Part shown: piece by piece, positions 14,562-42,041 of the stretch
Numbering within the stretch: position 1 is the stretch's first letter
How the letters are laid out: each line of letters starts with the position of its first letter
From: Promethearchaeia archaeon
Lineage (GTDB): Archaea > Asgardarchaeota > Lokiarchaeia > Sigyniarchaeales > SOKP01
DNA: 64,000 nt
NCBI GenBank assembly: GCA_029856145.1
Contig: JAHQWK010000004.1
Location: 128,001-192,000 of the forward strand
Reading direction: 5' to 3'
Program-made: the position numbers and the translations under genes
Notes under the pieces: generated by a model
The model's input: only the letters and a program-made list of their open reading frames with translations
What the model was told of the DNA's origin: nothing
Databases searched by the model: none

Positions 14562-14635
14562 CGTGTTCAGTATAAAATTAGAACTCCAACTGAACTTCGA
14601 ATTACAATTGAACTTTCACGAATAAAACTATATAT
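14562..14635 (+). promoter_or_regulatory. Operator boxes plus TATA, site A
   Basis: GAACTCCA-AC-TGAACTTC (14581-14598) and GAATTACA-AT-TGAACTTT (14599-14616), then 11 nt, then CTATATAT (14628-14635). Confidence 0.75.
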
Positions 14636-14701
14636 TGAACTACAAACTTATGAGTATTAAGAAAAAAACAAATAAAAAAAACAAATAAGAGGTAAAAAAT
14701 A

Positions 14702-14779
14702 ATGAAAAAAATCGCAGAAAAAATAATTATAATAAAAAGTGGTACTTCAGCGTATAATCGAACTTATATTAGTTATTAA
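14702..14779 (+). CDS. Micro-peptide 1, 25 aa: MKKIAEKIIIIKSGTSAYNRTYISY
   Basis: GAGGT RBS at 14689-14693, first RBS-preceded ORF after promoter A, followed by a T-tract, homologous to 22685..22768. Confidence 0.75.
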   Translation: MKKIAEKIIIIKSGTSAYNRTYISY

Positions 14780-14872
14780 ATATTAAAAATTTTTTTTTTA
14801 TTTTTATGAAAAATAATCTATTGAACAATTTACGATAATTAACCGTTATTATATGATCACTAAGAGAAAACT

Positions 14873-14931
14873 CTTTTCCATCTCCATATTGAATATGTTT
14901 ATACGAGTTCGGGCGAGACTCTGACTCGCCC
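14873..14931. other. Conserved pyrimidine motif plus GC hairpin, copy 1
   Basis: CTTTTCCATCTCCATATT, then GGGCGAG-actctga-CTCGCCC. Confidence 0.6.
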
Positions 14932-14962
14932 ATAAATTATTACATTAAAAGGTTGAAAAGTT

Positions 14963-15169
14963 ATGGATATAAAAAATACAAGAATGGTTGGAAAACATCA
15001 TTGTCCTGAGTGTAATTGTATGTATATTAGAATTGATAATGAAATTATTTCTTGTCCTGGATGTGAACTATCTTCAAAAGGTAATAGATCGATCATCAAT
15101 GAAGAAGAATGCCAGGAAAGAATTAGTTCAATTTCAGATTTAAACTTCAATAAAAGTTCATGTTCTTAA
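14963..15169 (+). CDS. Small zinc-finger protein
   Basis: CPECNC...CPGC; AGGTTGA RBS. Confidence 0.7.
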   Translation: MDIKNTRMVGKHHCPECNCMYIRIDNEIISCPGCELSSKGNRSIINEEECQERISSISDLNFNKSSCS

Positions 15170-15234
15170 TCTATAAATAAAAAAAGTAATTTAAATATAA
15201 TAAAAAAGAAAATCAATTAAATAGGTAATTACAA

Positions 15235-16548
15235 ATGGAAGTAAAAAGCACAAAAAAATCTTATTGGCACTATATGTATTTCTTGATTGGACAACAATTC
15301 TCAATGTTAGGCTCAATGATAGTTGGTTTTGTAATAACTTGGTGGATGGCCGGTAACGTTATTTTTCTTTCAATTTCAGTGTTTTTAATGTTTCTCCCGC
15401 AAATTATTGTGACTCCACTTTCAGGTGTACTTTCGGATAGATGGAATAAAAAGGCAATAATTGCAATATCAGATTCTGGTCAAGCAGCTGCAACTCTTTT
15501 ACTGTTTGTATTTTTTCTTTTCGACATCCAAAACATCGTTTTTGTTCTCGCAATAAATACATTTAGAGCAGCATTATTTGCATTTCAACTACCAGCTGTT
15601 CAGTCTTTAGTCCCTATTATGATCCCTAAAAAAAGTCTAAGCAGGGTTAATGGAATGAACTTTTTGAGTACTGGAGTTATTTTCACTATGGGACCAATGA
15701 TAGCGGCAGGTCTTATGGCTATTTTTCCACAAACAGAACTGATCTTTCTTCTCGATATTATAACATTCCTGATTGCTATGGTCCCATTGTTAATTATCAA
15801 AATTCCTAAAGTACACCAAACTACAGAAGAAGCCGTAAAAAAGTCAATGTTTAAGGATTTCAAAACGGGACTATTAACAATCAAAATGATTCCGGGATTA
15901 TTTGCTATGATTGCTTTCGCAATGGTATGGAATTTTATTAACAGACCTTGGGCTGTTTTGCTACCTAATTTTATTTATGATACTCACGGAGGTACTGCCT
16001 TAAATCTTGCGTTATTAATGACTGTGAGTCAAGTTGGGAACATAATAGGATCTCTAATCACCTCACTTAAGAAAACGTGGAAGCATAAAATTAAAATAAA
16101 CATAATTGGAGGAGCAATATTTTTTGTATGTCAAATCCCCGCGATTCTTGCACCTCAAGGAAATTTCATTATTATGATGATATCTCTATTTCCTGCATGG
16201 GTGATTTTTCCAATTACAGTATCTACGTATTTAGCAATATTACAGACGGTTGTTTCGAAAGATAAAATTGGTAGAATTATGTCGATTGATCACATGATAT
16301 CTATGGCAATTGCTCCAATTGGAGCACTTATATCCGGGCCATTAGCATTATTAATAGGAATAAGATATTTATTTCTAATCGCTGCAATCCTTGGAGTAAT
16401 TCATCCGTTTATCATTTGGGGTTTCACGAAAATAAGACAACTTGAAGTTATAGAAAGAGAAATAGTAATGAAAGCAGATGAAGTTGCCGAAGTAGAAGAA
16501 ATCACAGAGCTTACTGAAGTTATTCAAGTTATTGAACCAATAGAATAA
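15235..16548 (+). CDS. MFS exporter (MefA/DHA3-like)
   Basis: GQQFSMLGS, GVLSDRWNKK motif A, about 12 TM helices. Confidence 0.9.
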   Translation: MEVKSTKKSYWHYMYFLIGQQFSMLGSMIVGFVITWWMAGNVIFLSISVFLMFLPQIIVTPLSGVLSDRWNKKAIIAISDSGQAAATLLLFVFFLFDIQNIVFVLAINTFRAALFAFQLPAVQSLVPIMIPKKSLSRVNGMNFLSTGVIFTMGPMIAAGLMAIFPQTELIFLLDIITFLIAMVPLLIIKIPKVHQTTEEAVKKSMFKDFKTGLLTIKMIPGLFAMIAFAMVWNFINRPWAVLLPNFIYDTHGGTALNLALLMTVSQVGNIIGSLITSLKKTWKHKIKINIIGGAIFFVCQIPAILAPQGNFIIMMISLFPAWVIFPITVSTYLAILQTVVSKDKIGRIMSIDHMISMAIAPIGALISGPLALLIGIRYLFLIAAILGVIHPFIIWGFTKIRQLEVIEREIVMKADEVAEVEEITELTEVIQVIEPIE

Positions 16549-16612
16549 TTTTTTTTTATTTTAATTTTTCATTTTTATTCTTTTTATTAGTATTTTTCAA
16601 TCTTCAATCTCT

Positions 16613-16668
16613 CCAGTTCATAATAAAGTATGAACTTCATATGAAGTCCGAATCAATAGTCTATATAT
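16613..16668 (+). promoter_or_regulatory. Operator box plus TATA, site B
   Basis: GAACTTCA-TA-TGAAGTCC (16632-16649), 11 nt, CTATATAT (16661-16668). Confidence 0.8.
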
Positions 16669-16801
16669 GAATTGAAAATCTAATAAGAATAAAGAATTTT
16701 AGGTTCAAAATTCGAATCATGTAGGAATAGGCTCCTACACTGAAGAAATGTAGCCTGTCATATTCCAATATTATTAATATCAATTAAAAGAGTGGTTTAA
16801 A

Positions 16802-17746
16802 TTGTCTGAAAAATCAGAAATCGAAAAAATATTAAAAGAACGCTCTAAATTTGAAGGTCTGGAAACATCAAATTCCGAATTTGTATTTATTGATAAAGTT
16901 GTTCAAGATTATGCACCAGAAATTGCTTTTTTATATCAATTTAGGGAGGACGAATCAGAAGAACAACAGATAAAAACAGGACGCCTTCATGAAAATCGCA
17001 TCTTAGGCATAATTCTAAAATTCTATTTAGAAGGAAAGAATAAGATCACTACTGGAGAAGTAGAACAGGAATATAAAAGATATTTTAGGGAAATTGCTCG
17101 ATCAACTACTTCAACATATTTAAATATGTTAAAGAAAGAATCTACTCTCTATACAGAAAGAGATGGTAGAGTAGCTTATTATATCTTTTATGAAGATCCT
17201 CCCGTTGATATTAAACCTTTTTGGTTTACTAGAATCTTTTGTATAGTTCCAGCTTACTTTAATAGAGCAATGAAATTTTCTAGTTTATACTTTAACGCTG
17301 AGAAATTTATCCAACAGTATATCAATGATATGGGTTATGGAGATAAAGAAATTTTAATAAGAAATTTCAAATTTATTATCGGTTTAATTGTATTAAATAT
17401 TTTGAAGAATCGAAGCTCTAAATGTATTGGTTGTCAGTTTAGTAAGAGGGAAATTTATAAGAAACTGGAAGAATTGATTAATGTAGCTATTAAAGATAGG
17501 TCTGATGTTTTACCAGGAGAATTATCGGTAGATTTGATTGAAAAGCATTCAGAAATACCAATATTTAAAGGAACTAATATTAAAGAAGATGAATTTAAAG
17601 GAAATATTATTAAGGAGATAGTAAGGAGCGCTGATATATTCAAAAAAGATTTAGATTTTCAAATTATGGTATCATCTCGAAGAAAAGATTCAAGATTAAA
17701 GCAAATACAAGCTTTAGAAGAAGACAGTGCAAAATTATCTTATTAA
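16802..17746 (+). CDS. Putative winged-helix DNA-binding protein
   Basis: ITTGEVEQEY...IARSTTSTYLNMLKKE..L...RDGRVAYY. Confidence 0.65.
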   Translation: MSEKSEIEKILKERSKFEGLETSNSEFVFIDKVVQDYAPEIAFLYQFREDESEEQQIKTGRLHENRILGIILKFYLEGKNKITTGEVEQEYKRYFREIARSTTSTYLNMLKKESTLYTERDGRVAYYIFYEDPPVDIKPFWFTRIFCIVPAYFNRAMKFSSLYFNAEKFIQQYINDMGYGDKEILIRNFKFIIGLIVLNILKNRSSKCIGCQFSKREIYKKLEELINVAIKDRSDVLPGELSVDLIEKHSEIPIFKGTNIKEDEFKGNIIKEIVRSADIFKKDLDFQIMVSSRRKDSRLKQIQALEEDSAKLSY

Positions 17747-17840
17747 TTTTATTTAACACTTTTTTTTAATATCTTAAGTAGTGAAATTTTTCGCACTATA
17801 ATCACCTTTAAATAAGATATTCAATTTTATAAAATTAGAA

Positions 17841-17865
17841 AGTTGTGAAAAAAAAACTCACAACT
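17841..17865. promoter_or_regulatory. Perfect inverted repeat AGTTGTGA-N9-TCACAACT upstream of thioredoxin
   Basis: Directly visible; a related TAGTG...CACTA at 17779-17798. Confidence 0.55.
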
Positions 17866-17894
17866 TAGAAAAAACAATTAAATGTGTATTTTAA

Positions 17895-18311
17895 ATGCAG
17901 AATGTAGATGATAACCTAGAAATGTTGAGAATAAAAAAAGCCGAAGCTTTATTAAAACACCAAAAAATGCCAGAAACTATAGTAGAGATACAGTCTTCAG
18001 AAGAATTTCATAAATTATTAAAGAATTACACTGACAAAACTATTATTATAGATTGTTGGGCTGTTTGGTGCGGACCTTGCATGTTTTTTGCTCCCATTTT
18101 TAAGAAACTTCATGGAGAATTTCAAAAAGATTTCGTATTTGTAAAGGTAAACGTTGATGAAAATAATGCCATAGCAAGGGAGTATGGGATAACTGGAATC
18201 CCAACGACTTTATTTATTAAAAATAAAGAAGTTATAAATCAAGTTGTTGGAGCAATGAATTATGAAGGTATGAAGCAGGTATTAATAAAATTAAAACAAT
18301 CAGATAGTTAA
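17895..18311 (+). CDS. trxA: Thioredoxin
   Basis: WCGPC active site, KVNVDE, GIPT. Confidence 0.95.
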   Translation: MQNVDDNLEMLRIKKAEALLKHQKMPETIVEIQSSEEFHKLLKNYTDKTIIIDCWAVWCGPCMFFAPIFKKLHGEFQKDFVFVKVNVDENNAIAREYGITGIPTTLFIKNKEVINQVVGAMNYEGMKQVLIKLKQSDS

Positions 18312-18362
18312 ATAAATACCCCTTTTTATTAATTTCTTTTTAAATTTTTAAGTTGATAACTA

Positions 18363-18827
18363 ATGGAAGTAATTGGAAACCAATTAAAAGAATTTGAAAT
18401 TATAGATGAGATATTAGAAAATAAAGATATTTTTTCTAGTACACGATTATTTAAATGTATTTTAGGCCTAAATAAAACCGAATCACAGGTATTTGGATAT
18501 ATTTTAAGAAATAAAGATGTAAGTACTTCTGAAATAGCAAAAGCTCTGAAGTTGGATAGAAGTTCAATTCAAAGAGCTGTTCAAGATTTATCTGAATTAA
18601 TACTTATTAATCGTAAGTCTATATCTATGAAAGAATATTCTAAGGTGAAAGGTAAGACTAATATCAAAAGGCAAGGATATCTTTATGTTTATAATGCTAA
18701 AGATATTAAGTCAATAAAAACCCAGTTTAAAGAACTATTAGATAAATGGTACGGTTCAATGTTAAAATACATTGAGAATCTCGAGAATCTATGTGAATGT
18801 TGTGGTTTCAAATTCGAACCATGTTAA
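18363..18827 (+). CDS. HTH regulator (TrmB/MarR-like) with Cys-rich C-terminus
   Basis: FKCILGL, EIAKALKLDRSSIQRAV, GYLYVY, terminal CECC....C. Confidence 0.8.
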   Translation: MEVIGNQLKEFEIIDEILENKDIFSSTRLFKCILGLNKTESQVFGYILRNKDVSTSEIAKALKLDRSSIQRAVQDLSELILINRKSISMKEYSKVKGKTNIKRQGYLYVYNAKDIKSIKTQFKELLDKWYGSMLKYIENLENLCECCGFKFEPC

Positions 18828-18858
18828 ATTTTTTAATAGGCTTAAGAAAAAAAGTTTT

Positions 18859-19521
18859 TTAGAACATAAAAATTACCTTGAAAGGGAGATCTTCCAATAA
18901 TTCTCTTAGTTCTTTTTTAAATTCTTCCGAAATGGGTTCAAAACCATCTAGAGTATAATTACTTACCGAATAATGATCTGGCATAACATCTAATAAGAAC
19001 TCCTTTAATTTTTCCACATTTATAACGGTATCATTTAACCCTTTCAAAAACATTGTGTAGATGCCCAACTTCCCCTTAAATTTTTTACTGAATTTCAAAA
19101 TGCCCTCTAAAACATTTTTAGGTTCTATCGATTCCGGACACTTATTAATTTTTGAAAAATGAAAGTGATCAACAGTATTAAGATTAATAGCAACCAAATC
19201 ACATCCGTTAAATACATTTCGAGCTTCCTTATCTTGAAAGATTCCACAATTTAAATAAATACCAATTTTTTGATTTGGATATATCGTCCTAATCATTTTT
19301 GTAATCAACTTAAAATTTGAATGGGTTATTGAATCTGTTATTCCCTTAAACCATATTAAACTGGGAATCCCTCGAACATTAATACAATCTCTAATTTCAT
19401 AAAAAACTTCTTCAGTAAGGTTAATTAGGCCTGAGCCTTCACAGTAAGAACTAAAATCAACTGATAAAAGTGTTCCAAAATTAAAATTAAACTCGAACGC
19501 TTTTACAAACCTGTAACCCAT
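18859..19521 (-). CDS. Radical-SAM-fold protein lacking CxxxCxxC
   Basis: 'DLVAINLNTVD...FSKINK', 'TMFLKGLND' resemble radical-SAM barrel motifs. Confidence 0.55.
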   Translation of the reverse strand: MGYRFVKAFEFNFNFGTLLSVDFSSYCEGSGLINLTEEVFYEIRDCINVRGIPSLIWFKGITDSITHSNFKLITKMIRTIYPNQKIGIYLNCGIFQDKEARNVFNGCDLVAINLNTVDHFHFSKINKCPESIEPKNVLEGILKFSKKFKGKLGIYTMFLKGLNDTVINVEKLKEFLLDVMPDHYSVSNYTLDGFEPISEEFKKELRELLEDLPFKVIFMF

Positions 19522-19547
19522 TTAAACCACATTTTTTATTTGCATTA

Positions 19548-22505
19548 TTAATTATTTTTTAATTCGTCTATCAATACCTTGATTTCAGAAATCAATATCT
19601 CCGCTTTTCGTAGATAATCCTCTCTTTCACTCGGATGCATCTTTTCTGTAAATTTTTTCCCTTTTTCATAATACTCGAGTGCGTTTTCAAATTTACCAAG
19701 TTCTTTAAAACATCTTCCCATTTTTAAGCATGTCTCGAATGCAAACCAACCAGTAGGTTCAAGATTCAAAGCTTCTTTTAATTTTTCAATAGCATCTTCG
19801 TACTCTCCTAAGGACATTAATATTTCACCATATGTATCATAAACGTTTCCATAATTTGGATTAAGACTTATCAGATATTCTGCAGTCTCAATAGCTTCCT
19901 TTCTTCTCCCTAAATACCCTAATATTATGGCTTTATTGTTAATAATATTAGTATCTTGTGGGTTTAATTCAAGGGCTTTATCAACAGCTTCTAAACCTTC
20001 ATCATACTGTTTTAGATGTACATAGATAAACGATTTTTGTAAGAGAAGACTTCTTTTCAAGGAGGGGTGGCTTTCTAACAAGTCATCAATCAAATTCAAA
20101 GCTTCAGATTCTCTCTTGGACATAATCAAATTGTATGTTTTCCTAGCATATAAAGAATTCAATCCGGGAACCAATTCAATAGCCTTATCAATAGATTCAA
20201 TAGCTTCATCATGTTTTCCAAGTCCATTAAAAACGTATGCTTGAAATAAAAGATATCTTGTTTTATCATATGTAAAAGGGTCAAAAGAGATTGTAAGTTT
20301 TATTAATTCAGTAAAAGTATCAATATTTGGTTCTTTTAATGTAAATCTATAAATCAAATTATAACCAAGTACAATGGCTTTTGTGATAAATGAAATTGGA
20401 TGATCAGGATAAAGAGTTAAAACTAGATTTGCAATTTCTAAAGCTTTTTCAAATTTCCCTCTTGCTAAATATGAGTATGCTAAAATAAAATAAGCTTCTG
20501 TATCAATTCCAGGATTCTTTTTAAGGGTATTTATATCGATTTCACTTGTTATCAGTTGCTTCGCCTCTTTATATTTATAAATCTCACAATAGTAGAGACT
20601 TCTCAAAAGTAGAATTTCTTTATCGTTTGGTTTCAAGGCGATTAATTGATTTATAACATCTAAGGGATCATTATAATCCTTTACCAATGTCATCCAATGA
20701 GTAATATAAATTATGAATTTTGTTTTTAATAGAAGAGTATTATCTGGATATTGAGATAATGACTCGTTAATAAGATGGAGTGCTTTTTCTCCTTGAAACA
20801 TTCTCAACAATATTTGAGCTTTATGACTAATTAAAACAACATTAGATGATTTCTTTAGTCCTTTTTCAACATTTTCTAAAGATCTCTCATAATTGTCCAT
20901 TAAAAAGTAAGTTAATGATTGCAATAAATATCCAATATACTCCTCTGGATATTTCTCAATAATTTCATTAGTTATATCAATTGAATCATCTAATTTATTA
21001 TTCGCTGTTGTTATAATATCTTTTATAATTAACTGATTAATGGTTTTTAACTTTGTGCTATTATTCTGATATAGTTCCCTCGCTTTAGAAGCTTTATTTC
21101 TGTATAATGTTTTTACAATTTTTTTAAATAGATCTATTTTATTCAGATAATAAGTCTCCTGAACTTCTTTTGAGTTCACAAAATACAATTTTGTTAGGTG
21201 CATAATACTTAGTACGCTAAAAATACTACCATCTAAGGTATAATGATACTCATCCTCATCTCCTGCTATTGGTTTTGAAGGTTCAAAAGTTTGGAATTCC
21301 TCAAAAATATTTTGCCAAACAAATCCTTCTAATTTTGCTTCGCTATCAACTAATTTTTTCTCAGTCTCAAATTTATATGCTAAATATTTAATATATTCAG
21401 GTAAAAATGATTTTAATGAGGGCTTCAGATGTTCATGGAATAATTTATCACAAATACCATCTAAAATTTCATCTAATAACAATCCTACATCTATCGTCAG
21501 GGCTTCATGAAATTTGTTTAGATATGTAAATTTAATGATATGTTTTTCCACAATCGCATTAAGAACTTTCTCAATTGTCTCATTCTTTTGAAAATAATAA
21601 ATCCCTCCTTGTTCATCTTCTACTTTAAAAAACTTAATATCAAAAAATTCATTATCTACAATCTCTCCTATATAATAATCTAACGTAGTTTTGTCAACTT
21701 TATACTTTAATGAGAATTCTTGAGGTGAAATGAATTCGGGATAATTATCTGGATGATTAATCGAAAGGAACAACAAAATTTTATTAAAGATTTCCTCGTT
21801 TTTTAACATTGGCTCTACTTTAGAATAAGAAAACTTTAAAATATGATCAAGATATCGAAATTTCAATTCATCATCTTCAATTTTATATTTCTTGAAAAAC
21901 ATTCTAGTTTTTTCTGTTATTTCTTCAATTCTCTTACTTTCTTGTTCTAATATAGATTGACGATCCAAATCGTAAGACTTTAATATTCTTAAATACTCAT
22001 TCTTTCCCAAGGGTGTTATTATATATTCCTTGTTTTCTCTTGCTACGAATCCATCATCTATTAATGAATTTAAATTGTTAGATAAGGAGGATTGATTAAT
22101 CGATAGTGGCTCTTGTTTAAAATCTGACCATTTGCATGAATAATTATTATAAAGCATCCACAAAATCCAATGATCATAATTCCTAATTTTAGTTATTGTT
22201 TTTGGTGGATACTTTAATCTCCTCTTTCCTAATTTCTTGTCATAGACTAATTCACTAAATCTATCTCTCCCTTGTGCTGTAATTAGATACTTGCCTTTTT
22301 CAGGTTTTTCAATATAATCCTTATTCATTAGTTTATTCAAATTACCTGATAATGTTGAAGGACTTATTTCTACCTCAAAATCCGACCACTCACAAATATC
22401 ATTATTACTGAGCATCCATAGTATTACATATTCAAAATCAGTTTTTCCCATTATTGGATTTAATATCTCTCCTGGAGGATATATGATTCCTTCTGATCTA
22501 CTCAT
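19548..22505 (-). CDS. Tandem winged-helix plus TPR regulator, paralog 2
   Basis: Collinear with 11993..14503 (RNYDHW.LWM.YNN..CKWSDF, YDLDRQSIL..ESKRIEEIT, P.GWF); longer TPR region. Confidence 0.85.
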   Translation of the reverse strand: MSRSEGIIYPPGEILNPIMGKTDFEYVILWMLSNNDICEWSDFEVEISPSTLSGNLNKLMNKDYIEKPEKGKYLITAQGRDRFSELVYDKKLGKRRLKYPPKTITKIRNYDHWILWMLYNNYSCKWSDFKQEPLSINQSSLSNNLNSLIDDGFVARENKEYIITPLGKNEYLRILKSYDLDRQSILEQESKRIEEITEKTRMFFKKYKIEDDELKFRYLDHILKFSYSKVEPMLKNEEIFNKILLFLSINHPDNYPEFISPQEFSLKYKVDKTTLDYYIGEIVDNEFFDIKFFKVEDEQGGIYYFQKNETIEKVLNAIVEKHIIKFTYLNKFHEALTIDVGLLLDEILDGICDKLFHEHLKPSLKSFLPEYIKYLAYKFETEKKLVDSEAKLEGFVWQNIFEEFQTFEPSKPIAGDEDEYHYTLDGSIFSVLSIMHLTKLYFVNSKEVQETYYLNKIDLFKKIVKTLYRNKASKARELYQNNSTKLKTINQLIIKDIITTANNKLDDSIDITNEIIEKYPEEYIGYLLQSLTYFLMDNYERSLENVEKGLKKSSNVVLISHKAQILLRMFQGEKALHLINESLSQYPDNTLLLKTKFIIYITHWMTLVKDYNDPLDVINQLIALKPNDKEILLLRSLYYCEIYKYKEAKQLITSEIDINTLKKNPGIDTEAYFILAYSYLARGKFEKALEIANLVLTLYPDHPISFITKAIVLGYNLIYRFTLKEPNIDTFTELIKLTISFDPFTYDKTRYLLFQAYVFNGLGKHDEAIESIDKAIELVPGLNSLYARKTYNLIMSKRESEALNLIDDLLESHPSLKRSLLLQKSFIYVHLKQYDEGLEAVDKALELNPQDTNIINNKAIILGYLGRRKEAIETAEYLISLNPNYGNVYDTYGEILMSLGEYEDAIEKLKEALNLEPTGWFAFETCLKMGRCFKELGKFENALEYYEKGKKFTEKMHPSEREDYLRKAEILISEIKVLIDELKNN

Positions 22506-22573: not shown

Positions 22574-22629
22574 TCACTTCAGACTAAAGTGTGAACTTCA
22601 TGTGAAGTTCGAAGTGCGAATCTATATAT
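22574..22629 (+). promoter_or_regulatory. Operator box plus TATA, site C
   Basis: Perfect GAACTTCA-TG-TGAAGTTC (22593-22610), 11 nt, CTATATAT (22622-22629). Confidence 0.85.
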
Positions 22630-22684: not shown

Positions 22685-22768
22685 ATGGTTCAAGTATTAG
22701 AAAAGAAGTCGAGGTTGATAATTATAACGAATGATACGGACAGATATCATTCGAGATATATAACTTAG
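22685..22768 (+). CDS. Micro-peptide 2, 27 aa: MVQVLEKKSRLIIITNDTDRYHSRYIT
   Basis: AGTGA RBS, first RBS-preceded ORF after promoter C, T-tract after the stop, homologous to peptide 1. Confidence 0.75.
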   Translation: MVQVLEKKSRLIIITNDTDRYHSRYIT

Positions 22769-23422: not shown

Positions 23423-23956
23423 ATGATGAAATTTAAGAATTTGAGGCTGAGAATGGCATTATTTTTAGGATTATTAATGTTACTCATTCCTCAAGTGAGA
23501 GCCAATCCAGTTGTTGTCCCTATGTTTCAAATCCACCCATTTATTATGGGTATATACTTAAATTTTCTATTTGTTGCTACTCTTGCCATAGAAATCTTAA
23601 TCATTAAGACTTTTTTAAAAAACAATAAAATATTTGAACGTTCAAAAGAATTCTACAATTCAATTTTTCTTGTTAATCTAATTTCTTATCCTATGACGCA
23701 ACTTTTTGCATTTCTTATATATCAATCTTCTTTAGGTGATTATGATGTTGCCTCCGTGTTATTTAATTCTATTTTAATTGAAGTATTTCCTATTATGTTA
23801 GAATGTGTATTATTTTTGAAAATCTTTAAAAAACTAAATAGAACTGCTTGTTTTGTACGTTCAGTTAATAATAAGATGATAGTAAAATCCACAATTACCG
23901 CAAATTTAGCATCTTTCGCGTTTGGGTTTCTTACATTTTTCTTATTTTTAATTTGA
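23423..23956 (+). CDS. Membrane protein with cleavable signal peptide
   Basis: Signal ending VRA|NP; four further hydrophobic helices. Confidence 0.7.
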   Translation: MMKFKNLRLRMALFLGLLMLLIPQVRANPVVVPMFQIHPFIMGIYLNFLFVATLAIEILIIKTFLKNNKIFERSKEFYNSIFLVNLISYPMTQLFAFLIYQSSLGDYDVASVLFNSILIEVFPIMLECVLFLKIFKKLNRTACFVRSVNNKMIVKSTITANLASFAFGFLTFFLFLI

Positions 23957-23975
23957 TTAAAATTGAGAGGTTATA

Positions 23976-25757
23976 ATGAGATATAATAATGATCATAAAT
24001 TTTTGAATTCTGCAATATGCATTGCTGTTATTCTAAATATCATTGTTTTTGGGATTTTTAGTTCTGATTTATTTATATATAGATACTCTCGTCCTTATGA
24101 TTGGAGGGTGGAAGTTCTTAAAGTACCAACAACGTCCAATCCTGTTACCATGGATCCTTGCGATTCATGGGATAGTGTATCAAATGATATACTTGATCAG
24201 GTAATAGAAACCCTAATTGCATATAATTTATCTGACCCAGAATTTCCACTTGTAGGAAGACTTGCCTCAGCTTGGGATTTCCAAAGCTCAAAATTTGGGC
24301 ATAATATAACTTTCACACTAAGACCAAATGTATATTTCCATGATGATTCATTACTTACTGGAGACGATGTTTTACATTCTTTCGCAAGAATTAATTACTT
24401 CGGTAATGCAACTGGTACCTTAACAGAGCCTGATCATATGGCTTTTCCACACTCTCTCTATAAATTTCCTGGTAAGCCTCCAGGTTTAACACCAATCTTC
24501 AATCATACCTTAAGCTTTGTTAATCCAACTGATAACTTAGAAGTTACTATTGTAATGAATGGTCCATTTGCTCCTGCTGAAGGATTATTAGCCTATGTAG
24601 CAAGTGGAATTGTACCTCTTAATTGTCCTGCAGAGGATATGTGGGAACTCGGTACGGATCTAGCCATTGGAACTGGTCCATTCAAATTAGTTAGTTATGT
24701 ACCAAATTCAGAGACTAGATTTGAGCGTTGGGATAGATATTGGGATGCTCCCGCTTATTGGGATGAAATTGTCTATGTCTATTATAGAGATGCTGTCACC
24801 GCTAATAATGCTATGTTGGCTGGAGATATTGACTACTTAGGCCAGGGTATTGCTGCACTAAAAGAATACTTTAATGCGAGTCCTTATATCACGGTAACTG
24901 GAGATGGAGTTGCTGATTTTATCAATGGTTCTATCTATTGGTATATTGCTTTTAACTCCCCTTATATAAATGTTACGTGGAGAAAAGCTATTTCATCTGC
25001 CTTTAACTATACATATCTTAACGAAGAAATAGATGAAGGCACTACTGTGAAAGCTAATTCCTTAGTTCCTCCCGGTTTTCCTGCTCATAATGCTTCATGT
25101 AAAGGTGGTGTTTTTAATATACCTTATGCTAGACTAAAAATGCAGAGCATGGGGCATGGTGTAGGATGGGACATTGGCAGTCAGGTTGGAGATATATTTA
25201 CTCCTGGTCTTGATGAAGCTCTATGGAAAGCAGCCGCATGGGTTCCAGATGTAGGTAACTTTACTGCAAATCAGTTTAATTTCCGGTTTAGACAAGGAAG
25301 TCATTGGATGGAACTCCTAATTGCTCAATTTCGAGATGATATGGACAGGATTGGAATTGAAATTAACGTGCAAATATTGACTTGGTGTGAATTCATAGAA
25401 ATGGGTGAAGGCTATCCTGACAGACTCCATATCTATCAAGTAGGTTGGGGTCCTGCTTACTTTGAAACCTTCACCATGATTGATCCATTAGTAAATCCCG
25501 CATCTTCATCAAACTTTGCTCGAATTGATAATCCTGAAATAAACACTTACTTAGCCCTTGCTGCTTCTGAAACCGATACTGCTACGAGATATGGATACTA
25601 TATGAAACTTCAGTATTTAATTATGGATAAATACTCTTACCATATGGGCATACAATTTGATAAGCTTTATCATGTTCATGCTGCTAATTTGAAAGGCGTC
25701 CCATATAATACTATGAGGAACTTATACTGGTATCCAACTTATCGCGAAACCGCATAA
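23976..25757 (+). CDS. ABC transporter family-5 (OppA/DppA-like) substrate-binding protein
   Basis: TMDP, LASAW, FTLRPNVYFHDD, IGTGPF, RKAISSAFN. Confidence 0.9.
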   Translation: MRYNNDHKFLNSAICIAVILNIIVFGIFSSDLFIYRYSRPYDWRVEVLKVPTTSNPVTMDPCDSWDSVSNDILDQVIETLIAYNLSDPEFPLVGRLASAWDFQSSKFGHNITFTLRPNVYFHDDSLLTGDDVLHSFARINYFGNATGTLTEPDHMAFPHSLYKFPGKPPGLTPIFNHTLSFVNPTDNLEVTIVMNGPFAPAEGLLAYVASGIVPLNCPAEDMWELGTDLAIGTGPFKLVSYVPNSETRFERWDRYWDAPAYWDEIVYVYYRDAVTANNAMLAGDIDYLGQGIAALKEYFNASPYITVTGDGVADFINGSIYWYIAFNSPYINVTWRKAISSAFNYTYLNEEIDEGTTVKANSLVPPGFPAHNASCKGGVFNIPYARLKMQSMGHGVGWDIGSQVGDIFTPGLDEALWKAAAWVPDVGNFTANQFNFRFRQGSHWMELLIAQFRDDMDRIGIEINVQILTWCEFIEMGEGYPDRLHIYQVGWGPAYFETFTMIDPLVNPASSSNFARIDNPEINTYLALAASETDTATRYGYYMKLQYLIMDKYSYHMGIQFDKLYHVHAANLKGVPYNTMRNLYWYPTYRETA

Positions 25758-25808
25758 ATGAAATATAAAGAAATATAAAAAATTAAAAAAAGAATAAAGG
25801 AAGGAAAA

Positions 25809-27623
25809 ATGAAATCTGAAATGAAAGAGTTAGCGATATTTATTTTAATAATTTTAATTATTTTTTCTGGTTTCGGAAACGTTATCATGTTACTGATGTA
25901 TAGTCCTCCGCATTCTCATCCTACTTTCGAAGTACTTAAAGTAGCAAGAACTTCAAATCCAGTTACTATGGATCCATGTGATTCTTGGGATAGTGTGTCA
26001 AATGATATGCTTGATCAGGTAATGGAAACCCTCATTGCTTATAATTTATCTGACCCAGAATTTCCGCTTGTAGGAAGACTTGCCTCAGCTTGGGACTTCC
26101 AAAGCACGCCTTTAGGCACGAATATCACATTCCAATTACGACCAAATGTATATTTCCATGATGATACATTACTTACTGGAGAATGTGTTATCCATACCTT
26201 TACAAGAATAAATTTTTTTGGCAATTGGACAGGGACATTAACTGCTCCTCATCATATGGCAGCTCCACACTCTCTTTATAAATTTGCTAATGGAACACCA
26301 ATCTTTAATGAAACGCTCAGTTTTGTTAATCTAACTAACCCATTAGAAGTTACTCTTGTATTAAATGGTCCATTTGCTCCTGCTGAAGGATTACTAGCCT
26401 ATACAGCAAGTTCAATCGTACATCCTTATTCTACTCCTGTAAATGAGATGTTAGAACTCGGCGAGGATCGAGCCATAGGGACTGGTCCATTCAGATTAGT
26501 TTATTATGTACCAAATTCAGCGATTTGGTTTGATCGTTGGAAGAGATATTGGGATGGTCCCGCATATTGGGATGAAATCGTCTATGTCTACTATAGAGAT
26601 GCTGTCACCGCTAATAATGCTATGCTGCGTGGAGATATTGACTACTTAGGTCAGGGTATTGCTGCACTAAAAGAATACTTTAATGCGAGTCCTTATATCA
26701 CGGTAACTGGAGATGGAGTTCATGATTACATCAACGGGGCTACTTATAACTGTATTGTATTTAAATCAGAATGGATCAATCGTACATGGAGAAAGGCGAT
26801 TTGTCATGCTTATAACTATTCCTATCTTATCCATAATATCATGGAAGACACAGTTGTGAGAGCTAATTCTTTAGTCCCTCCAGGTATCCCGGGTCATAAC
26901 AGTTCAGTTGTAGGTGGTACGTTCAATATTACAAAAGCAAGACAGATTATGCAGAGCATGGGTTATGGTTATACGGATAATGTTCCTTGGGACGTAGGAT
27001 CTCAGGTTGGAGATGTGTTCACCCCTGGTGCTAATGAAACTCTATGGAAAGCAGCAGAATTTATACCAAACGTAGGAAACTTCTCTGGTAATGTATGGAA
27101 TTTCTATGTAAAACCAGGAAGCCTTTTATTGGAATTTCTAACTCAACGCTTTATAGAGGATATGGATTTAATTGGAATTAAGGTAGAATATTATTGGTAC
27201 TGGTGGGCTGAATGGCCGATACCACTATGGTGGTGGAAAGGAATCCATTTATGTTGGTTGAGTAAATATCCTAATTATTATGAAGCTTTTAATATGATTG
27301 ATTCATTAGTCAACCCAGATTCTACCCTTTATTCCGAAACTTTAAATATACTTGATTCAATAGTCGACCCAGCATCTACCCTCAATATCCTTAAAATTAA
27401 CAATACAGAAATAAATACTCTTTTAGCTACTACTGTAGCTGAAACTAGTACTGCTACAAGATATGAATACTATAAGAAACTTCAATATTTAATTCATGAT
27501 AAGTACTACTACCATATGCCTCTGTTTTATGACAAGCTCTACTATGTTCATGCTGCCACCTTGAAAGGATTTCCATATAATTGTATGAGGAATTTATACT
27601 GGTATCCAACTTATCGTGATTAA
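25809..27623 (+). CDS. Family-5 substrate-binding protein, tandem paralog
   Basis: Same motifs; long near-identical DNA blocks shared with the upstream gene. Confidence 0.9.
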   Translation: MKSEMKELAIFILIILIIFSGFGNVIMLLMYSPPHSHPTFEVLKVARTSNPVTMDPCDSWDSVSNDMLDQVMETLIAYNLSDPEFPLVGRLASAWDFQSTPLGTNITFQLRPNVYFHDDTLLTGECVIHTFTRINFFGNWTGTLTAPHHMAAPHSLYKFANGTPIFNETLSFVNLTNPLEVTLVLNGPFAPAEGLLAYTASSIVHPYSTPVNEMLELGEDRAIGTGPFRLVYYVPNSAIWFDRWKRYWDGPAYWDEIVYVYYRDAVTANNAMLRGDIDYLGQGIAALKEYFNASPYITVTGDGVHDYINGATYNCIVFKSEWINRTWRKAICHAYNYSYLIHNIMEDTVVRANSLVPPGIPGHNSSVVGGTFNITKARQIMQSMGYGYTDNVPWDVGSQVGDVFTPGANETLWKAAEFIPNVGNFSGNVWNFYVKPGSLLLEFLTQRFIEDMDLIGIKVEYYWYWWAEWPIPLWWWKGIHLCWLSKYPNYYEAFNMIDSLVNPDSTLYSETLNILDSIVDPASTLNILKINNTEINTLLATTVAETSTATRYEYYKKLQYLIHDKYYYHMPLFYDKLYYVHAATLKGFPYNCMRNLYWYPTYRD

Positions 27624-30137: not shown

Positions 30138-30144
30138 CTCCTTA

Positions 30145-35491: not shown

Positions 35492-35509
35492 TCTTAATAA
35501 TCATCCTCA

Positions 35510-36409: not shown

Positions 36410-36548
36410 AAAATATCGTTTTTAATCTAAATTTATTTTATTTGAAATAAACTTAATCTCTCAAATTTCTATAAATTGAATTTGTTGTCTGAAGTTCATT
36501 TATTTAAGTTTACAATGAAAATTAAAAAAAAAAAAAGTAAATTTCTAC

Positions 36549-37052: not shown

Positions 37053-37396
37053 ATTTAATTCACCTTTTATGGTAAATTTTCTATTATTTTATAATTAAAA
37101 ATTAATTAATGGATAAGACAACCTTTATATAAATAATTAGCTATAAGGTAAATTTTACTTTTTGTTCTTTAGATCTTTATATACCTTTAATTGTTAAGAT
37201 TCAAAAATCGCGAGTTTCGATACTTTTATCGAGAGTTTGTTGAATTAATTCCCTTCTAGCTTTTATTACAGCTTCACTTTTCTAAACCATTATAAAAAAA
37301 AATAATTTTTGTAGGATTTAAAATAGAGGAGAGTTATATATTATTCTGTTAGAAATTGAGAAAAAAAATTAAAATAAAAAAAAAGAAAAAAGAATT

Positions 37397-38887
37397 TTAT
37401 GTTTTAGGTTTTCGTTTTCTAATGAAATAAATTCCAATAATCGCTCCAAGAGCAGCGCTTTCAATAATAACAAAAACTAATAAGACAATACTCAAGGTCA
37501 CCGTGTCTATTCCTGGGAGTCCCGCAGTACATATATTATTTTCAAATAAATTTCCGGTACTTCCTCCTGTTTCATTGTAACATACCAAATTCCCTAACAA
37601 AATATTATTGGCAATTATATTATTATCGCTATTATCTAAATATGTACCGTTCCTGTTATTATTCGCTGTGTTAGATATAATCGAATTTGAGTTACTATCT
37701 AATAAATGGATTCCATTCTTTTCATTATTATTAGCTGTATTTTCTACTAATGCGATATTATTGCTTGTTTCTAACAAGATTCCATGTTCTTCATTATTTG
37801 TTGCTAAATTATTCATTAGCAAATTATTATGACTATTAAAAACTACATGAATTCCACTTAAGTTATTGTATTGTATAGTGTTAGATTTTAAAATGCTTCT
37901 TAGACTAGAATATAATCTTATCCCATCTAAACCATTATGATGAGCGTTATTATTCTCTATTACACAATCGTCTGGATTGTTCACGAATATTCCATTTTGT
38001 TTATTTTCATAAACTGTGTTTTGAGAGCATATAAGACTATTTCCGCCATCAAGAATAATTCCATGTAATACATTTCCGTAAACTAAATTATTGGAAATAG
38101 TTGTTTCATCACAGGAATCAATTTCAATTCCATTTTGACCATTAAGATTAGCTGTATTACCTGAGATAGTATTATAATCACTATTTGAAGTTAAAGAAAT
38201 TCCATTTATATTTTCATTCTCGTTTGCTTGATTATAAGAAATGGTATTAGAAGTACTCTGGGTGAGAAATATTCCGTGGTTAAAATTTGCAGAGGCGTTA
38301 TTATTTGAAATGGTGTTATGATGAGAATTTGATAGGCGTAAACCTTCATTATTTCCATATATATGATTGCCACTAACTTCTGTGTTATTCACAAACGATA
38401 ACTCAATACCTCTTAAACAATTGTATACGAAGCTATTAATAATTTCACCATTGGTTACATTGTTTAGATATAATCCAGATTCCAGAGAGTCTGAATTTCT
38501 AAATATACAATCTCTAATAATAAAATAATCTCTTGAATTAAATATTCTTAAGCAGTCATCAAATGCAACACCATTATCAAAAATATGATTTCGAATTAAA
38601 TAAGGACTTGCAGGTGTACCATATCCTGTACAAATTCCAATATCTTTTGCCCAAGTCCAATTGCCAGAACTTGTAGTGTTAGTGGTGGCTAACGCATCAA
38701 TTTCAATATCAACAAATGTAGAAGCAATCTTTGGTAATATTGTATCGTAATCATTTTCATATTTAATCGTAGTATTTGAAACATGGAAATTGAAACCTAT
38801 TGAAAACCCCAAAATTGAACATGCTAAAAAAATTGTAAATAAAACCGCAATTTTTTGTTTTTTTCTATTGATCATTAGTTTAACCAT
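37397..38887 (-). CDS. NosD/CASH right-handed beta-helix surface protein
   Basis: GI.L..S..NTIS.N repeats; signal peptide; C-terminal TM plus RKRKPKT. Confidence 0.9.
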   Translation of the reverse strand: MVKLMINRKKQKIAVLFTIFLACSILGFSIGFNFHVSNTTIKYENDYDTILPKIASTFVDIEIDALATTNTTSSGNWTWAKDIGICTGYGTPASPYLIRNHIFDNGVAFDDCLRIFNSRDYFIIRDCIFRNSDSLESGLYLNNVTNGEIINSFVYNCLRGIELSFVNNTEVSGNHIYGNNEGLRLSNSHHNTISNNNASANFNHGIFLTQSTSNTISYNQANENENINGISLTSNSDYNTISGNTANLNGQNGIEIDSCDETTISNNLVYGNVLHGIILDGGNSLICSQNTVYENKQNGIFVNNPDDCVIENNNAHHNGLDGIRLYSSLRSILKSNTIQYNNLSGIHVVFNSHNNLLMNNLATNNEEHGILLETSNNIALVENTANNNEKNGIHLLDSNSNSIISNTANNNRNGTYLDNSDNNIIANNILLGNLVCYNETGGSTGNLFENNICTAGLPGIDTVTLSIVLLVFVIIESAALGAIIGIYFIRKRKPKT

Positions 38888-39010
38888 TTTTTAGTAAATA
38901 GTATGTAATTGAATATAGATATGATATAAAAAGGATTTAGGAATGATTCTTCCCAATTAAACTAAAAATGCCCTAAAATTATATTTAGAAAAAAAATAAA
39001 AAGAAGAAGT

Positions 39011-40756
39011 TTAGGTTTTAGGTTTTCGTTTTCTGACAAAATATACAGCAATTATTACTCCGATAAAAGCACCTTCAATAATACAAAGAATCAATAACAC
39101 TGTACTCAAATCTATTGCTGGGCCGCCAATTGCTCCAGTACAAATATTACCCTCAAAGATATTTCCTGAGCTTCCTGTTTCGTTATAACATACGATATTA
39201 CCTAATAAGATATTGTTAATGATTTTATTGTTATTACTCGTGTCCAGAAATGTACCGTTTTTATTATTATTAGCAGTATTTGTAATAATAGTATTATCAT
39301 TGCTTGTGAGTAAATGAATCCCATTCTCACCATTATTACTCGCTGTGTTACCTGAAATAATATTGTTATCACTATTCATCAGAAATACTCCATGTTCAAC
39401 ATTATTAGATGCTAAATTATTTAATAATAGGTTATCATCACTATTTGTATGAATGTATATTCCACTTAAATTATTATACTGGAAAGTATTAGATTTTATG
39501 AGATTTCTTAGAGATCCACCATCTAGAAGAAAACCATTCATACCATTATGATGCGCATTATTATCTTCGATTATACTATCAGTTATAAGAGAATAATAGA
39601 TTCCAGAATTTTTATTTTCATAAACTGTATTCATAGTACAACTCATATTAATCCCGAGGCCTGTAAAAATTCCATAACCGCTATTATTATAAGCTGTATT
39701 TTTATATATAATAGAGTCAATACAAAACGCTGCATAAAGTCCTGTCCCTGTGTTATGCTTCACTAAATTCTGAATATACTCATTATTATCAGCGAAACCA
39801 GCACTTATTCCATTATTACCATTAGATTTTGCTGTGTTTTTAGAAACAGTATTGAAATCACTTCCCGAAGTCAATGATATACCATTAACATCATTCTTAT
39901 TAGCAGTATTAGATATTATCGTATTCCTATCTCCATCACCAATAAGAATTCCATTATCTGTATTATCATTAGCTTCATTATAAGAAATGGTGTTGTAACT
40001 AGCTGTATCAATACTAATCCCGCTTTGACCATTACGATTGGCTGTATTGTGCAAAATATCATTGTTATCGCTATTTAAAACAATCCAGATTCCGGGAAAA
40101 TTTTGATTATCGTTTAGAAGATTATAGGAGATGGTGTTAAAAGTACTCTGAGTGAGGTATAATCCAATATCTATATTTGCCGATATATTATTATTAGAAA
40201 TAGTGTTAAAATGAGAATTATCTACTGTTAATCCAGCAGTAGTAATGTAAATATGATTTCCATCTAAAACAGTATTATTTACAAATTCCATCTCAATTCC
40301 TATATAGTTATCATAAGAAAAACTGTCAATGACCCTTCCATTAGTAACATTGCTTAAATAAAGTCCGGCCGACATGAAACCAGCGTTTATAAAGGTACAA
40401 TCTTGAATGATAAAATATTCTCTTGAATTTAAGATCCTTAAACAATCATCCATTGCTAAAGCATTATCAAAAGTATGCCCTTGAATTCTGTAAGGATTTC
40501 CAAGTGTGCCCAATCCTGTACACAGTCCAATATCTTTTGCCCATGTCCAATTACCATTGGTTGAAGTATTTGTAGTTAATAGTGCATCAATTGTAATATC
40601 ACCAAAAGTAGCTGCAATTCTCAACGAATCATTATCATAATCCCCATTAATTTCTCTAGAAGTATAAAAATTAGTGCTTACAGTGAGCGCCATGATTGTG
40701 CTTGTTAAAAAAATTGTTACAAAAAATGCAAGTTTTTGGTTTTTTCTATTTAACAT
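39011..40756 (-). CDS. NosD/CASH beta-helix surface protein, tandem paralog
   Basis: Same repeats; GNWTWAKDIG shared; RKRKPKT tail. Confidence 0.9.
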   Translation of the reverse strand: MLNRKNQKLAFFVTIFLTSTIMALTVSTNFYTSREINGDYDNDSLRIAATFGDITIDALLTTNTSTNGNWTWAKDIGLCTGLGTLGNPYRIQGHTFDNALAMDDCLRILNSREYFIIQDCTFINAGFMSAGLYLSNVTNGRVIDSFSYDNYIGIEMEFVNNTVLDGNHIYITTAGLTVDNSHFNTISNNNISANIDIGLYLTQSTFNTISYNLLNDNQNFPGIWIVLNSDNNDILHNTANRNGQSGISIDTASYNTISYNEANDNTDNGILIGDGDRNTIISNTANKNDVNGISLTSGSDFNTVSKNTAKSNGNNGISAGFADNNEYIQNLVKHNTGTGLYAAFCIDSIIYKNTAYNNSGYGIFTGLGINMSCTMNTVYENKNSGIYYSLITDSIIEDNNAHHNGMNGFLLDGGSLRNLIKSNTFQYNNLSGIYIHTNSDDNLLLNNLASNNVEHGVFLMNSDNNIISGNTASNNGENGIHLLTSNDNTIITNTANNNKNGTFLDTSNNNKIINNILLGNIVCYNETGSSGNIFEGNICTGAIGGPAIDLSTVLLILCIIEGAFIGVIIAVYFVRKRKPKT

Positions 40757-40933
40757 TAAATTAACCCTTTTTATGTAAAGACAGTATGTAAATTAACACC
40801 ATTCAAATATATAAATCTATTACATAAGATTCTTCATTTATCAAAGCATCAAAATCAGAATTCTTGTAAGAATTTGAAGGTGTAAGTCAGAAAAATCACA
40901 AAAGTTTTTCAAGAGTATATCCTAAAAAAATTT

Positions 40934-41881
40934 ATGTCATTTGATTTTGTGAAAAAATTAGATTTTGAATCAGAATTCTTTGATCTCTATAAACTTTCAG
41001 AAAGTGCTTATGGCGCGATTGGTAAAGAAAATTCTGGTATGGGTGGAAATGCTGGGTTCATTGATATTGAAGACTATTTGATAATTATCGATACTACTGC
41101 AAATGTAGACGCTGCTAAAGATTTAAAAAAAGCAGCTATCCAATACACTCAAAAAGAGCCTAATTTTATTGTAATTACCCATTATCATATGGATCATCTT
41201 ATGGGAACATCATTGTTTGATAAATCAACTCAAATAATGACATCTGATCGAACCCTTAAAAATATTCAAACAGATGGTAAGAAAAGAATTGAAGAGTATA
41301 AGAATATGGATCTAACCGAAATGGAAGATACTCTTAAAAATGAAACAGATGAGGCGAAGAAGAAAGATATTGAAAATGATCTTAAATTTCTTAAGGCTGT
41401 TCGTTCAGATGATTTTTCTCTTCGAGAACCTAATCTTACATTTAAGGAAGGTTGTGTCATATATGGAAAAGGAGAGTCTGTTCAGTTGAGAACTTTTAAA
41501 AAAGCTCATACTGATGGAGATGTAATAGTATATATCCCTGAGGAAAAAGTATTATTTGCCGGAGATCTTTTATTTGCACGTGAAGATCCCTGGCTAGGTT
41601 CTGGAGATCCTGAAGGATGGATTTCTGTAAATGATGAAATAATGACATTAGATTTTAAAGTTGTAGTTCCTGGACACGGTGAATTAGCTTCTAAAGAACA
41701 ATTTTCCCTTGAAAATAAATATATTAAAGAAATTCTCGATTTAGTTAAAAAACGTATTGATGCTGGAGAAGATCCAACACAATTAAAAAGAGAGGATTTT
41801 TCAGACGAGTTACAATCCTTTGATAGCCAACTTTTAGAATGGAATCTTAATTTTCTCGCCGAATTCTTAAAAAAGTCCTAA
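40934..41881 (+). CDS. MBL-fold metallo-hydrolase (cyclase-like)
   Basis: THYHMDH, AHTDGD, FAGDL, VPGHG. Confidence 0.9.
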   Translation: MSFDFVKKLDFESEFFDLYKLSESAYGAIGKENSGMGGNAGFIDIEDYLIIIDTTANVDAAKDLKKAAIQYTQKEPNFIVITHYHMDHLMGTSLFDKSTQIMTSDRTLKNIQTDGKKRIEEYKNMDLTEMEDTLKNETDEAKKKDIENDLKFLKAVRSDDFSLREPNLTFKEGCVIYGKGESVQLRTFKKAHTDGDVIVYIPEEKVLFAGDLLFAREDPWLGSGDPEGWISVNDEIMTLDFKVVVPGHGELASKEQFSLENKYIKEILDLVKKRIDAGEDPTQLKREDFSDELQSFDSQLLEWNLNFLAEFLKKS

Positions 41882-41986
41882 TTATATTTTTAATTTTTTT
41901 TGAAGAAAGTTATGTTCTTTTATAATCGTTGAATATTATTTGTAAATACGATAATTTAACCATACTCTTTTCTAAATAAGAAAAAA

Positions 41987-42041
41987 TTAGTTCAAATATT
42001 ATGTAAAGTTCATGTGAAGTTTATCAAATTAATCTATAAAT
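41987..42041 (+). promoter_or_regulatory. Operator box plus TATA, site D
   Basis: AAAGTTCA-TG-TGAAGTTT (42005-42022), 11 nt, CTATAAAT (42034-42041). Confidence 0.7.

Follow-up and report, generated by a model that had tools for sequence, protein, structure and literature searches.

A TATA-phased 18-bp operator and a paralogous winged-helix–TPR regulator family as its probable reader in a genus of Loki-type Asgard archaea

In archaea, repressors overlap the promoter or the transcription start site (TSS), whereas the typical activator binds 5' of the TFB-recognition element (BRE) and recruits TBP or TFB; the sites of upstream-activating regulators directly precede BRE/TATA and are often a set of short repeats (PMC5512572). 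Ptr2 of Methanocaldococcus jannaschii, EarA at the fla operon of Methanococcus maripaludis, TFB-RF1 of Pyrococcus furiosus and the ara-box of Sulfolobus are described cases that resemble the element analyzed here, an 18-bp repeated-box operator ending 11 nt before the TATA box. It lies in a 64,000-nt stretch of DNA from a Promethearchaeia archaeon (the window: positions 128001-192000 of contig 3 in a genome of 3.55 Mb, 30% G+C and 32 contigs). An earlier note had described the element at four promoters of the window and proposed as its binders regulators that combine winged helix-turn-helix (wHTH) and tetratricopeptide repeat (TPR) domains; our analysis extends these four promoters to a genus-wide regulon in Loki-type Asgard archaea. 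Judging from comparative sequence data, we consider it probable that the element serves as cognate operator for wHTH-TPR one-component regulators, a lineage-specific family rich in paralogues, which would most likely act as ligand-dependent activators via basal factors.

In the window, the consensus palindrome GAACTTCA-NN-TGAAGTTC (18 bp) is matched with at most three mismatches at six positions: 22593 (no mismatch), 16632 (one), 14581 (two), and 42005, 15142 and 25948 (three each). This compares with 0.53 matches expected, and six were reached in 0 of 100 shuffles. The match at 25948 lies within an open reading frame (ORF), has no TATA box and looks like chance. All sites listed in the earlier note are present, and the TATA-proximal copies at sites A to D are followed after exactly 11 nt by CTATATAT or CTATAAAT, both of the CTATAWAT type; only the second copy of site A (14599-14616) is weak, with four mismatches. 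A fifth promoter, absent from the earlier note, fronts a major facilitator superfamily (MFS) gene. The sites are as follows, with clade letters referring to the regulator tree described below:

14566-14578, + strand: box preceding site A, TTCA-gta-TAAAAT; clade D loci keep GTTCAGT here
14581-14616, + strand: site A, a pair of 18-bp units in tandem, 14581-98 and 14599-616, whose GAAST boxes are spaced 11+7+11; clade D operator subtype
14628-14635, + strand: TATA box CTATATAT, 11 nt 3' of site A
15142-15178, + strand: site fronting the MFS gene, AAACTTCAATAAAAGTTC (15142-15159) + 11 nt + CTATAAAT (15171-78), 56 nt before the MFS start codon; an identical site precedes the MFS orthologue in genome G016
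16617-16668, + strand: site B, upstream box (16617-29), palindrome GAACTTCATATGAAGTCC (16632-49), 11-nt spacer, CTATATAT (16661-68)
22578-22629, + strand: site C, upstream box ACTTCAGACTAAAGT (from 22576; core 22578-90), perfect palindrome (22593-610), GAAGTGC half-site in the spacer (22611-17), CTATATAT (22622-29)
42005-42041, + strand: site D, AAAGTTCATGTGAAGTTT + 11 nt + CTATAAAT (42034-41), with no regulator gene close by; the same site type precedes orthologues of the downstream metallo-beta-lactamase (MBL) gene in G016 and G003

The upstream box TTCA-N3-TAAA(G/A)T, likewise given in the earlier note for A, B and C, was found at all three and is kept at orthologous loci of the regulator next to site C; in the form AGTTCA, 10-11 nt 5' of the 18-mer, it also occurs at 15142, at D and at two other genome sites. 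Near-identical copies of site B precede orthologues of the 314-aa protein encoded at 16802 in G006, G010, G016, G013 and G015, and the site C type is kept in 11-12 of 13 loci. The relatives retrieved with the regulator protein are all Asgard metagenome-assembled genomes (Promethearchaeota/Promethearchaeia, for example Loki_b32 and ABR06), and the window promoters are therefore of the archaeal TATA/BRE type. The placement just upstream of BRE/TATA is as the earlier note described it and matches the typical position of archaeal activators (PMC5512572): a distance of 11 nt separates the end of the 18-mer from C-TATAWAT in each of the five window promoters, at seven other genome sites and at about 75 sites in the genus, and the 18-mer overlaps neither TATA nor the expected TSS. 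Rfam and tRNA scans of the window gave no match, and the elements therefore do not belong to known RNAs.

The rigid geometry extends across the genome and the genus. When the genome was scanned for the palindrome (up to three mismatches) followed by NTATAWAW, as the earlier note had proposed, 10 hits were found at spacing 11 and one in total at the eight spacings 7-10 and 12-15. All 10 have C before TATA, and C-initial boxes account for 164 of the 1633 upstream NTATAWAW boxes of the genome; since they are a minority, the C belongs to the operator promoter class, and CTATAWAT was ruled out as the organism's ordinary TATA box. An 8-mer enrichment for promoter elements in the genome gave no clear general consensus, and the 11 tRNAs that aragorn found in the genome are too few for a strong-promoter BRE/TATA consensus. 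Motif and regulator presence was counted in 18 sampled genomes of the genus and in 12 that represent eight other genera of the same order. The pattern 18-mer + 11 nt + CTATAWAW (up to one mismatch) occurs in 17 of the 18, at about 100 sites, and in none of the 12, with one hit for the reversed control. A second search covered 54 genomes of the genus with the gap left free (7-15 nt) and no C required before TATA. Exact matches were found in 33 of them, at about 75 unique sites, with the same gap in all but two and C in all but one; the reversed pattern gave four hits. In other species, the sites front orthologues of the aldehyde:ferredoxin oxidoreductase (AOR), MFS422, MFS437, MBL279, the 314-aa protein and a 93-aa protein. 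Shuffles, spacing controls and reversed-pattern controls rule out a chance origin, and a mobile-repeat origin is ruled out because the sites precede orthologous genes across species while their flanks diverge.

Which protein reads these sites? Two genes of the wHTH-TPR family adjoin sites in the window:

11993-14503, - strand: 839-aa-frame regulator, clade D, two tandem wHTH domains and C-terminal TPR (Pfam TPR families, HTH_45/HTH_34; tree); likely start ATG at 14503 (MSRTQEINYPPEE), kept in orthologues
19548-22505, - strand: 985-aa regulator, clade A, tandem wHTH domains, third winged-helix-like domain and long TPR region (Pfam, AlphaFold2 model, tree)

The C-terminal TPR region of these regulators is matched by many TPR families of Pfam, with E-values down to 2e-30. 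For the N terminus, Pfam gives generic wHTH families solely (HTH_45, HTH_34, MarR), with no homology to a known activator family such as Lrp/AsnC; both Pfam and the model place two winged-helix domains there instead of an XRE-type HTH. The AlphaFold2 model of residues 1-395 of the 985-aa protein, built from a 60-sequence alignment (predicted local distance difference test score 81.6), confirms the two tandem wHTH domains. The first comprises helices 24-34, 40-43 and 49-61 with a wing at 65-75, and the second helices 110-120, 126-130 and 138-150 with a wing at 154-163; the chain continues with a long helix at 182-206, the third winged-helix-like unit at 237-306 and more long helices. Foldseek and PDB profile searches returned weak, generic matches, namely RPC62, SarS (a tandem wHTH protein), MarR, PadR, HxlR and PhiH1-repressor-like folds, with the PadR/ArsR/HxlR-like profile hits at E >= 0.018. 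No significant sequence or Foldseek match was found for the regulator (best E 6e-3; TM < 0.2 for the whole model). As these matches are generic winged-helix folds solely, the regulator is assignable to no known family. In the literature searched, we found no description of the regulator family or its operator, and absence there is not proof.

The motif and the regulator have the same taxonomic range. The N-terminal 400 residues of the regulator were found in all 18 genomes of the genus, with 3-10 copies each (at least seven full paralogues in the source genome), and in 1 of the 12 genomes outside. At this sole outside regulator (locus L134), a GAACTTC-N4-GAAGT palindrome, GAACTTCGATCGAAGTAT, adjoins the gene at a different distance from TATA. 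Sites and regulator genes are also physically linked: for at least 21 of some 101 sites, the start codon of a divergently oriented regulator gene is 43-218 nt away, and for 20 of these it is within 90 nt, where fewer than one would be expected by chance.

Covariation was analyzed in 87 regulator loci, 80 of them picked by protein match without use of the motif and seven from the source genome. The tree of these regulators has eight clades, and 75 of the 87 loci have a C-TATA-like box at 80-195 nt from the start codon. In every clade, an 18-mer particular to that clade is conserved and stops 11 nt short of this box, while the surrounding intergenic DNA is not conserved:

Clade A (985-aa type): ACTTCrgAcTAAAGT-at-GAACTTCAcaTGAAGTgC-GAAGTgcGAAT-CTATATAT
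Clade H (contig 23 type): TTC-GAACTTCannnaAAGTTt-cntAAtaaAAA-CTATATAt
Clade D (839-aa type): TGAACTnCAnnTGAAcTaC-aAACTACaatTGAAgTaT + 11 nt + CTATAaAT; consensus across 11 anchored loci TGAACTnCAnnTGAAsTAC-aAACTACaatTGAAgTaT
Clade B: AGACTCcAcTtAGAGTTt
Clade C: gACTCcantTgGAnTT
Clades E, F and G: direct repeats of the GGAAyTnyC type

The arms read ACTTC..GAAGT in clades A and H versus ACTCC..GGAGT or ACTCT..AGAGT in clades B and C, a change that is symmetric on both arms, as would be expected of a two-fold or two-domain reader switching specificity. On the protein side, the recognition helix of the second wHTH domain, INQSSLSKNLN, is invariant across clades, and the helix of the first tracks the operator class: STLSG/K/N in clades A, H and D, STLSIYLN in B and C, and TLSRH in E, F and G. 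Clade-specific operator variants at one and the same 11-nt offset appear to be the best in silico support for binding by the wHTH-TPR proteins. Because the sites cluster near regulator start codons in many genomes and the operator covaries with the clade, these proteins have strong comparative support as the best candidate binders. The earlier note's proposal that they bind the element gains from both the clustering and the covariation; the part that did not stand is the assumption of one common operator, since site A is a separate subtype.

The composition of the element suggests how it might be read. The box RAASTTC is a 7-bp palindrome around its own central base, and the 18-mer can equally be read as two RAASTTC boxes 11 bp, or one helical turn, apart; additional boxes often accompany them, either upstream or within the spacer. 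As a consequence of this self-palindromic box, both 'inverted' (AACTTC..AAGTTC) and 'direct' versions (AAGTTC..AAGTTC, GAACT..GAACT) occur. Site A, with its two 18-bp units in tandem, is a related direct-repeat subtype that is kept as such in orthologues of the 839-aa regulator, rather than the palindrome of sites B to D. In clade A, a second pair of boxes precedes the operator, its arms set one base further apart, and the spacer contains another half-site; such extra boxes would fit several DNA-reading heads per complex.

The proposed regulators combine a tandem pair of winged-helix domains with a third, winged-helix-like domain that has long helices, and end in a TPR sensor. Two recognition helices, from both wHTH domains of one chain or from a dimer, would reach the two boxes from the same face of the DNA, and the fixed 11-nt distance to C-TATAWAT would set the protein just upstream of BRE, in a stereochemically fixed position relative to TFB/TBP. 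The most likely action is ligand-dependent activation through recruitment of basal factors: the operator lies between two divergent core promoters and overlaps neither TATA box, and activation is favoured because it sits upstream of BRE in fixed phase to C-TATA. An activator role would thus fit the geometry. Sites C and B are most likely bound by the clade A 985-aa protein, which may also bind 15142 and D, while the clade D 839-aa protein would have its own direct-repeat subtype, site A. The ligands are probably peptides, as suggested by the TPR domain and by the micro-peptide genes among the first targets.

Several points weigh against binding and activation by the wHTH-TPR proteins. A site that adjoins a regulator gene, even a conserved one, does not prove that this regulator binds it. 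The unlinked sites (AOR, MFS, MBL, DUF6144) have a flavour of their own, AAGTTCA plus an A/T-rich spacer, which exactly matches no clade operator, and the paralogue serving them is consequently not assignable; genome G002 has sites of this unlinked type and no clade A regulator in the sampled set. Only about half of the AOR orthologues retain the site. The regulator tree covers the N-terminal part and comes from a quick IQ-TREE search, not a finished careful one, with 95-100 SH-like approximate likelihood ratio support (SH-aLRT) for the main clades. Finally, the extra GAAGTGC box of clade A lies within the spacer, over the BRE position, making repression possible. The same wHTH-TPR proteins might then be repressors or dual regulators that, free of ligand, occupy the operator and the spacer boxes and block TFB at BRE until ligand releases them. 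Conservation of this half-site at clade A loci where BRE is expected speaks for such a scheme, as do the closest single-domain folds, which are MarR/PadR-like, and the many archaeal wHTH regulators that repress; TrmB-type regulators are described as repressor or activator. However, clade H, clade D and the unlinked sites have no extra spacer box, neither TATA nor the expected TSS is ever overlapped by the core 18-mer, and the strict helical phasing and invariant C-TATA are better explained by a contact to the basal machinery than by occlusion alone. We regard a repressor or dual role as unlikely.

A different factor could also bind the palindrome, the wHTH-TPR genes being merely its targets. 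The earlier note had named the 314-aa protein encoded at 16802 as the alternative binder, which would then be autoregulated via site B; an unlinked regulator would be another option. Site B is indeed kept before 314-aa orthologues, six or more loci of other genomes have a clade A regulator gene directly flanked, in divergent orientation, by a 314-like gene, and the family is equally genus-restricted (16 of 18 genomes in the genus, 0 of 12 outside). Yet G012 and G018, both incomplete assemblies, have sites and no 314-aa homologue that could be found, the contig 4 paralogue in the source genome has no upstream site, and one to three family copies per genome cannot account for eight operator variants tracking eight regulator clades. 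Moreover, a search for a common regulator gene next to the unlinked sites found none. These observations make another binder, the 314-aa protein included, quite improbable; the 314-aa family appears instead to be a conserved target and a recurrent divergent partner of clade A regulators. Very improbable, in our view, is an extended promoter class in which element and C-TATA are read by an alternative basal factor, a TFB or TBP paralogue. The genome does encode seven TFB paralogues (contigs 9, 13, 18 and 20) and 2-3 TBP-domain proteins (contigs 4, 9 and 13), and the operator class, unlike promoters generally, varies neither in the C before TATA nor in the exact spacing. But TFB touches about 6-7 bp directly 5' of TATA rather than an 18-bp two-box element 12-29 nt away (PMC5512572), and the clade-specific variants adjoin regulator paralogues, not TFB genes. 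Promoter classes may nonetheless be matched to particular basal factors. One TBP repeat of the source genome sits in a 437-aa frame.

The regulon proposed in the earlier note consisted of peptide 1, zinc-finger and MFS genes, the gene at 16802, peptide 2 with zinc-finger genes, and the MBL hydrolase at 42102. The sites before these genes are present, except that the MFS gene has its own operator and TATA box and is not simply part of a peptide 1 operon. The extent proposed proved too small, as AOR, an aldo/keto reductase (AKR), a second MFS transporter, DUF6144, PepF, further MBLs and micro-peptides are to be added. The genes fronted by sites in the window and on other contigs of the source genome are:

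14702-14779, + strand: peptide 1, 25-codon ORF driven by the site A promoter; not conserved at the locus
15235-16548, + strand: MFS transporter, 437 aa, target gene (Pfam MFS_1)
16802-17746, + strand: 314-aa protein with weak wHTH signal, target gene (Pfam weak Penicillinase_R/RTP); family genus-restricted
22685-22768, + strand: peptide 2, 27-codon ORF (MVQV...), first gene after site C; MVQV start kept in clade A loci
42102-42941, + strand: MBL-fold hydrolase, 279 aa, target gene (Pfam Lactamase_B)
Contig 8 site: fronts a DUF6144 protein
Contig 9 site: fronts AOR
Contig 13 site: fronts a 106-aa protein and an MBL fragment (L002:2844-3065)
Contig 15 site: fronts a 23-codon ORF, an MBL fragment (L007:6387-6869) and a small GTPase (L007:4881-5432)
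Contig 18 site: fronts a second MFS transporter
Contig 23 site: fronts a 23-codon ORF and an M3 oligoendopeptidase (PepF)
Contig 26 site: fronts a 93-aa protein, with a nitroreductase further on

Genes for AOR, AKR, MBL hydrolases, MFS transporters and DUF6144 follow the unlinked sites, and those for nitroreductase and thioredoxin lie further downstream; going by the Pfam names, this part of the regulon looks like carbonyl or xenobiotic detoxification and efflux. Among 30 AOR orthologue loci, 16 have a site (up to three mismatches) within 1.5 kb upstream, 11 of these within 260 nt of the start and five at 1.1-1.45 kb with an AKR gene (PF00248) in between, an arrangement that indicates a putative AKR-AOR operon. 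In five species (L141, L151, L154, L161 and L166), the operator drives an AKR gene and then the AOR orthologue, and in G006 a separate site precedes AKR alone (L038). The truncated MBL fragments on contigs 13 and 15 are similar to the 42102 gene and are probably decayed paralogues of this regulon member.

After clade H and clade A operators, the first gene is usually an ORF of 22-31 codons that lies 47-57 nt 3' of TATA and has a Shine-Dalgarno-like sequence. These micro-peptide ORFs group into recognizable peptide families across species, and no signal peptide is evident in them. Such a gene is present under the operator at clade H sites in many genomes and at clade A loci (MVQV), not at orthologues of the 839-aa locus; there (L012-L015, L017, L020 and L022), a longer conserved ORF unrelated to peptide 1 (MAQAIKNKDVRKNCVDVE..., MAQAIKNKD...) follows the operator. 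Small Rab/Ras-like GTPase genes (KFRFKITVIGDG.VGKTSL) recur after the micro-peptide ORFs at clade-H-type operators (L032, L036, L046 and contig 15), and at three more distant loci (L025, L026 and L028) such a gene is the direct divergent partner of the wHTH-TPR regulator. The regulators of clades E, F and G (contigs 32, 12 and 10; L008-L010) diverge from genes of secreted proteins with signal-peptide-like N termini. Within the window, the roughly 110-nt leader between the site B TATA box and the start codon at 16802 contains a hairpin, GTAGGA-ataggc-TCCTAC, at 16727-16750. At 23423-27623, a segment richer in G+C (0.36), genes for a 177-aa membrane protein and two tandem solute-binding-type proteins directly follow the peptide 2 and zinc-finger genes on the same strand, and site C may drive their co-transcription; apart from the chance-like match at 25948, the segment showed no internal operator.

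Taken together, the finding offers a cloneable candidate regulator-operator pair whose specificity comes in eight natural forms, whose promoter geometry is rigid and whose regulon is conserved; it is approachable with recombinant protein and synthetic DNA and requires no genetic system. The paralogue-specific operators with their symmetric arm change are a natural experiment on how winged-helix specificity diverges.

Finally, we would place the wHTH-TPR proteins beside the systems that they resemble. They are unrelated to Ptr2, which is of the Lrp type, and to EarA and TFB-RF1, and no known activator has tandem wHTH domains together with TPR. Unlike these regulators, they come as 3-10 paralogues per genome with their own operator variants, under invariant spacing and C, and their role as activators is what we infer. 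The wHTH fold itself is shared, through weak fold and sequence matches, with the tandem winged-helix proteins of the SarS/Rot type and with the single wHTH domains of MarR, PadR and HxlR; SarS likewise has two wHTH domains in one chain, mimicking a dimer, but all of these are bacterial and lack a TPR sensor. From the RRNPP(A) regulators of Firmicutes (Rgg/SHP, PlcR/PapR, PrgX, ComR/ComS), the proteins differ in having two winged helices instead of an XRE-type HTH, a length of 630-1000 aa and an archaeal TATA/BRE host, and the peptides in having no evident secretion signal, with peptide sensing being putative only. What they share is a DNA-binding N terminus fused to a TPR sensor, a regulator gene that adjoins a micro-peptide gene controlled via the shared intergenic operator, and many such paralogous pairs per genome. 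It is a tentative thought, and one we hold more doubtful than probable, that the family gives these archaea an equivalent of the peptide quorum sensing of Gram-positive bacteria: as many as ten TPR-sensor paralogues per genome, with private operators locked to TATA, would each induce their own micro-peptide gene (autoinduction) along with shared detoxification and efflux genes (AOR, AKR, MBL hydrolase, MFS). If the TPR domains do sense micro-peptides, this would be the first such peptide-signalling circuit proposed in archaea, with two winged helices in the place that an XRE-type HTH takes in the RRNPP(A) regulators.

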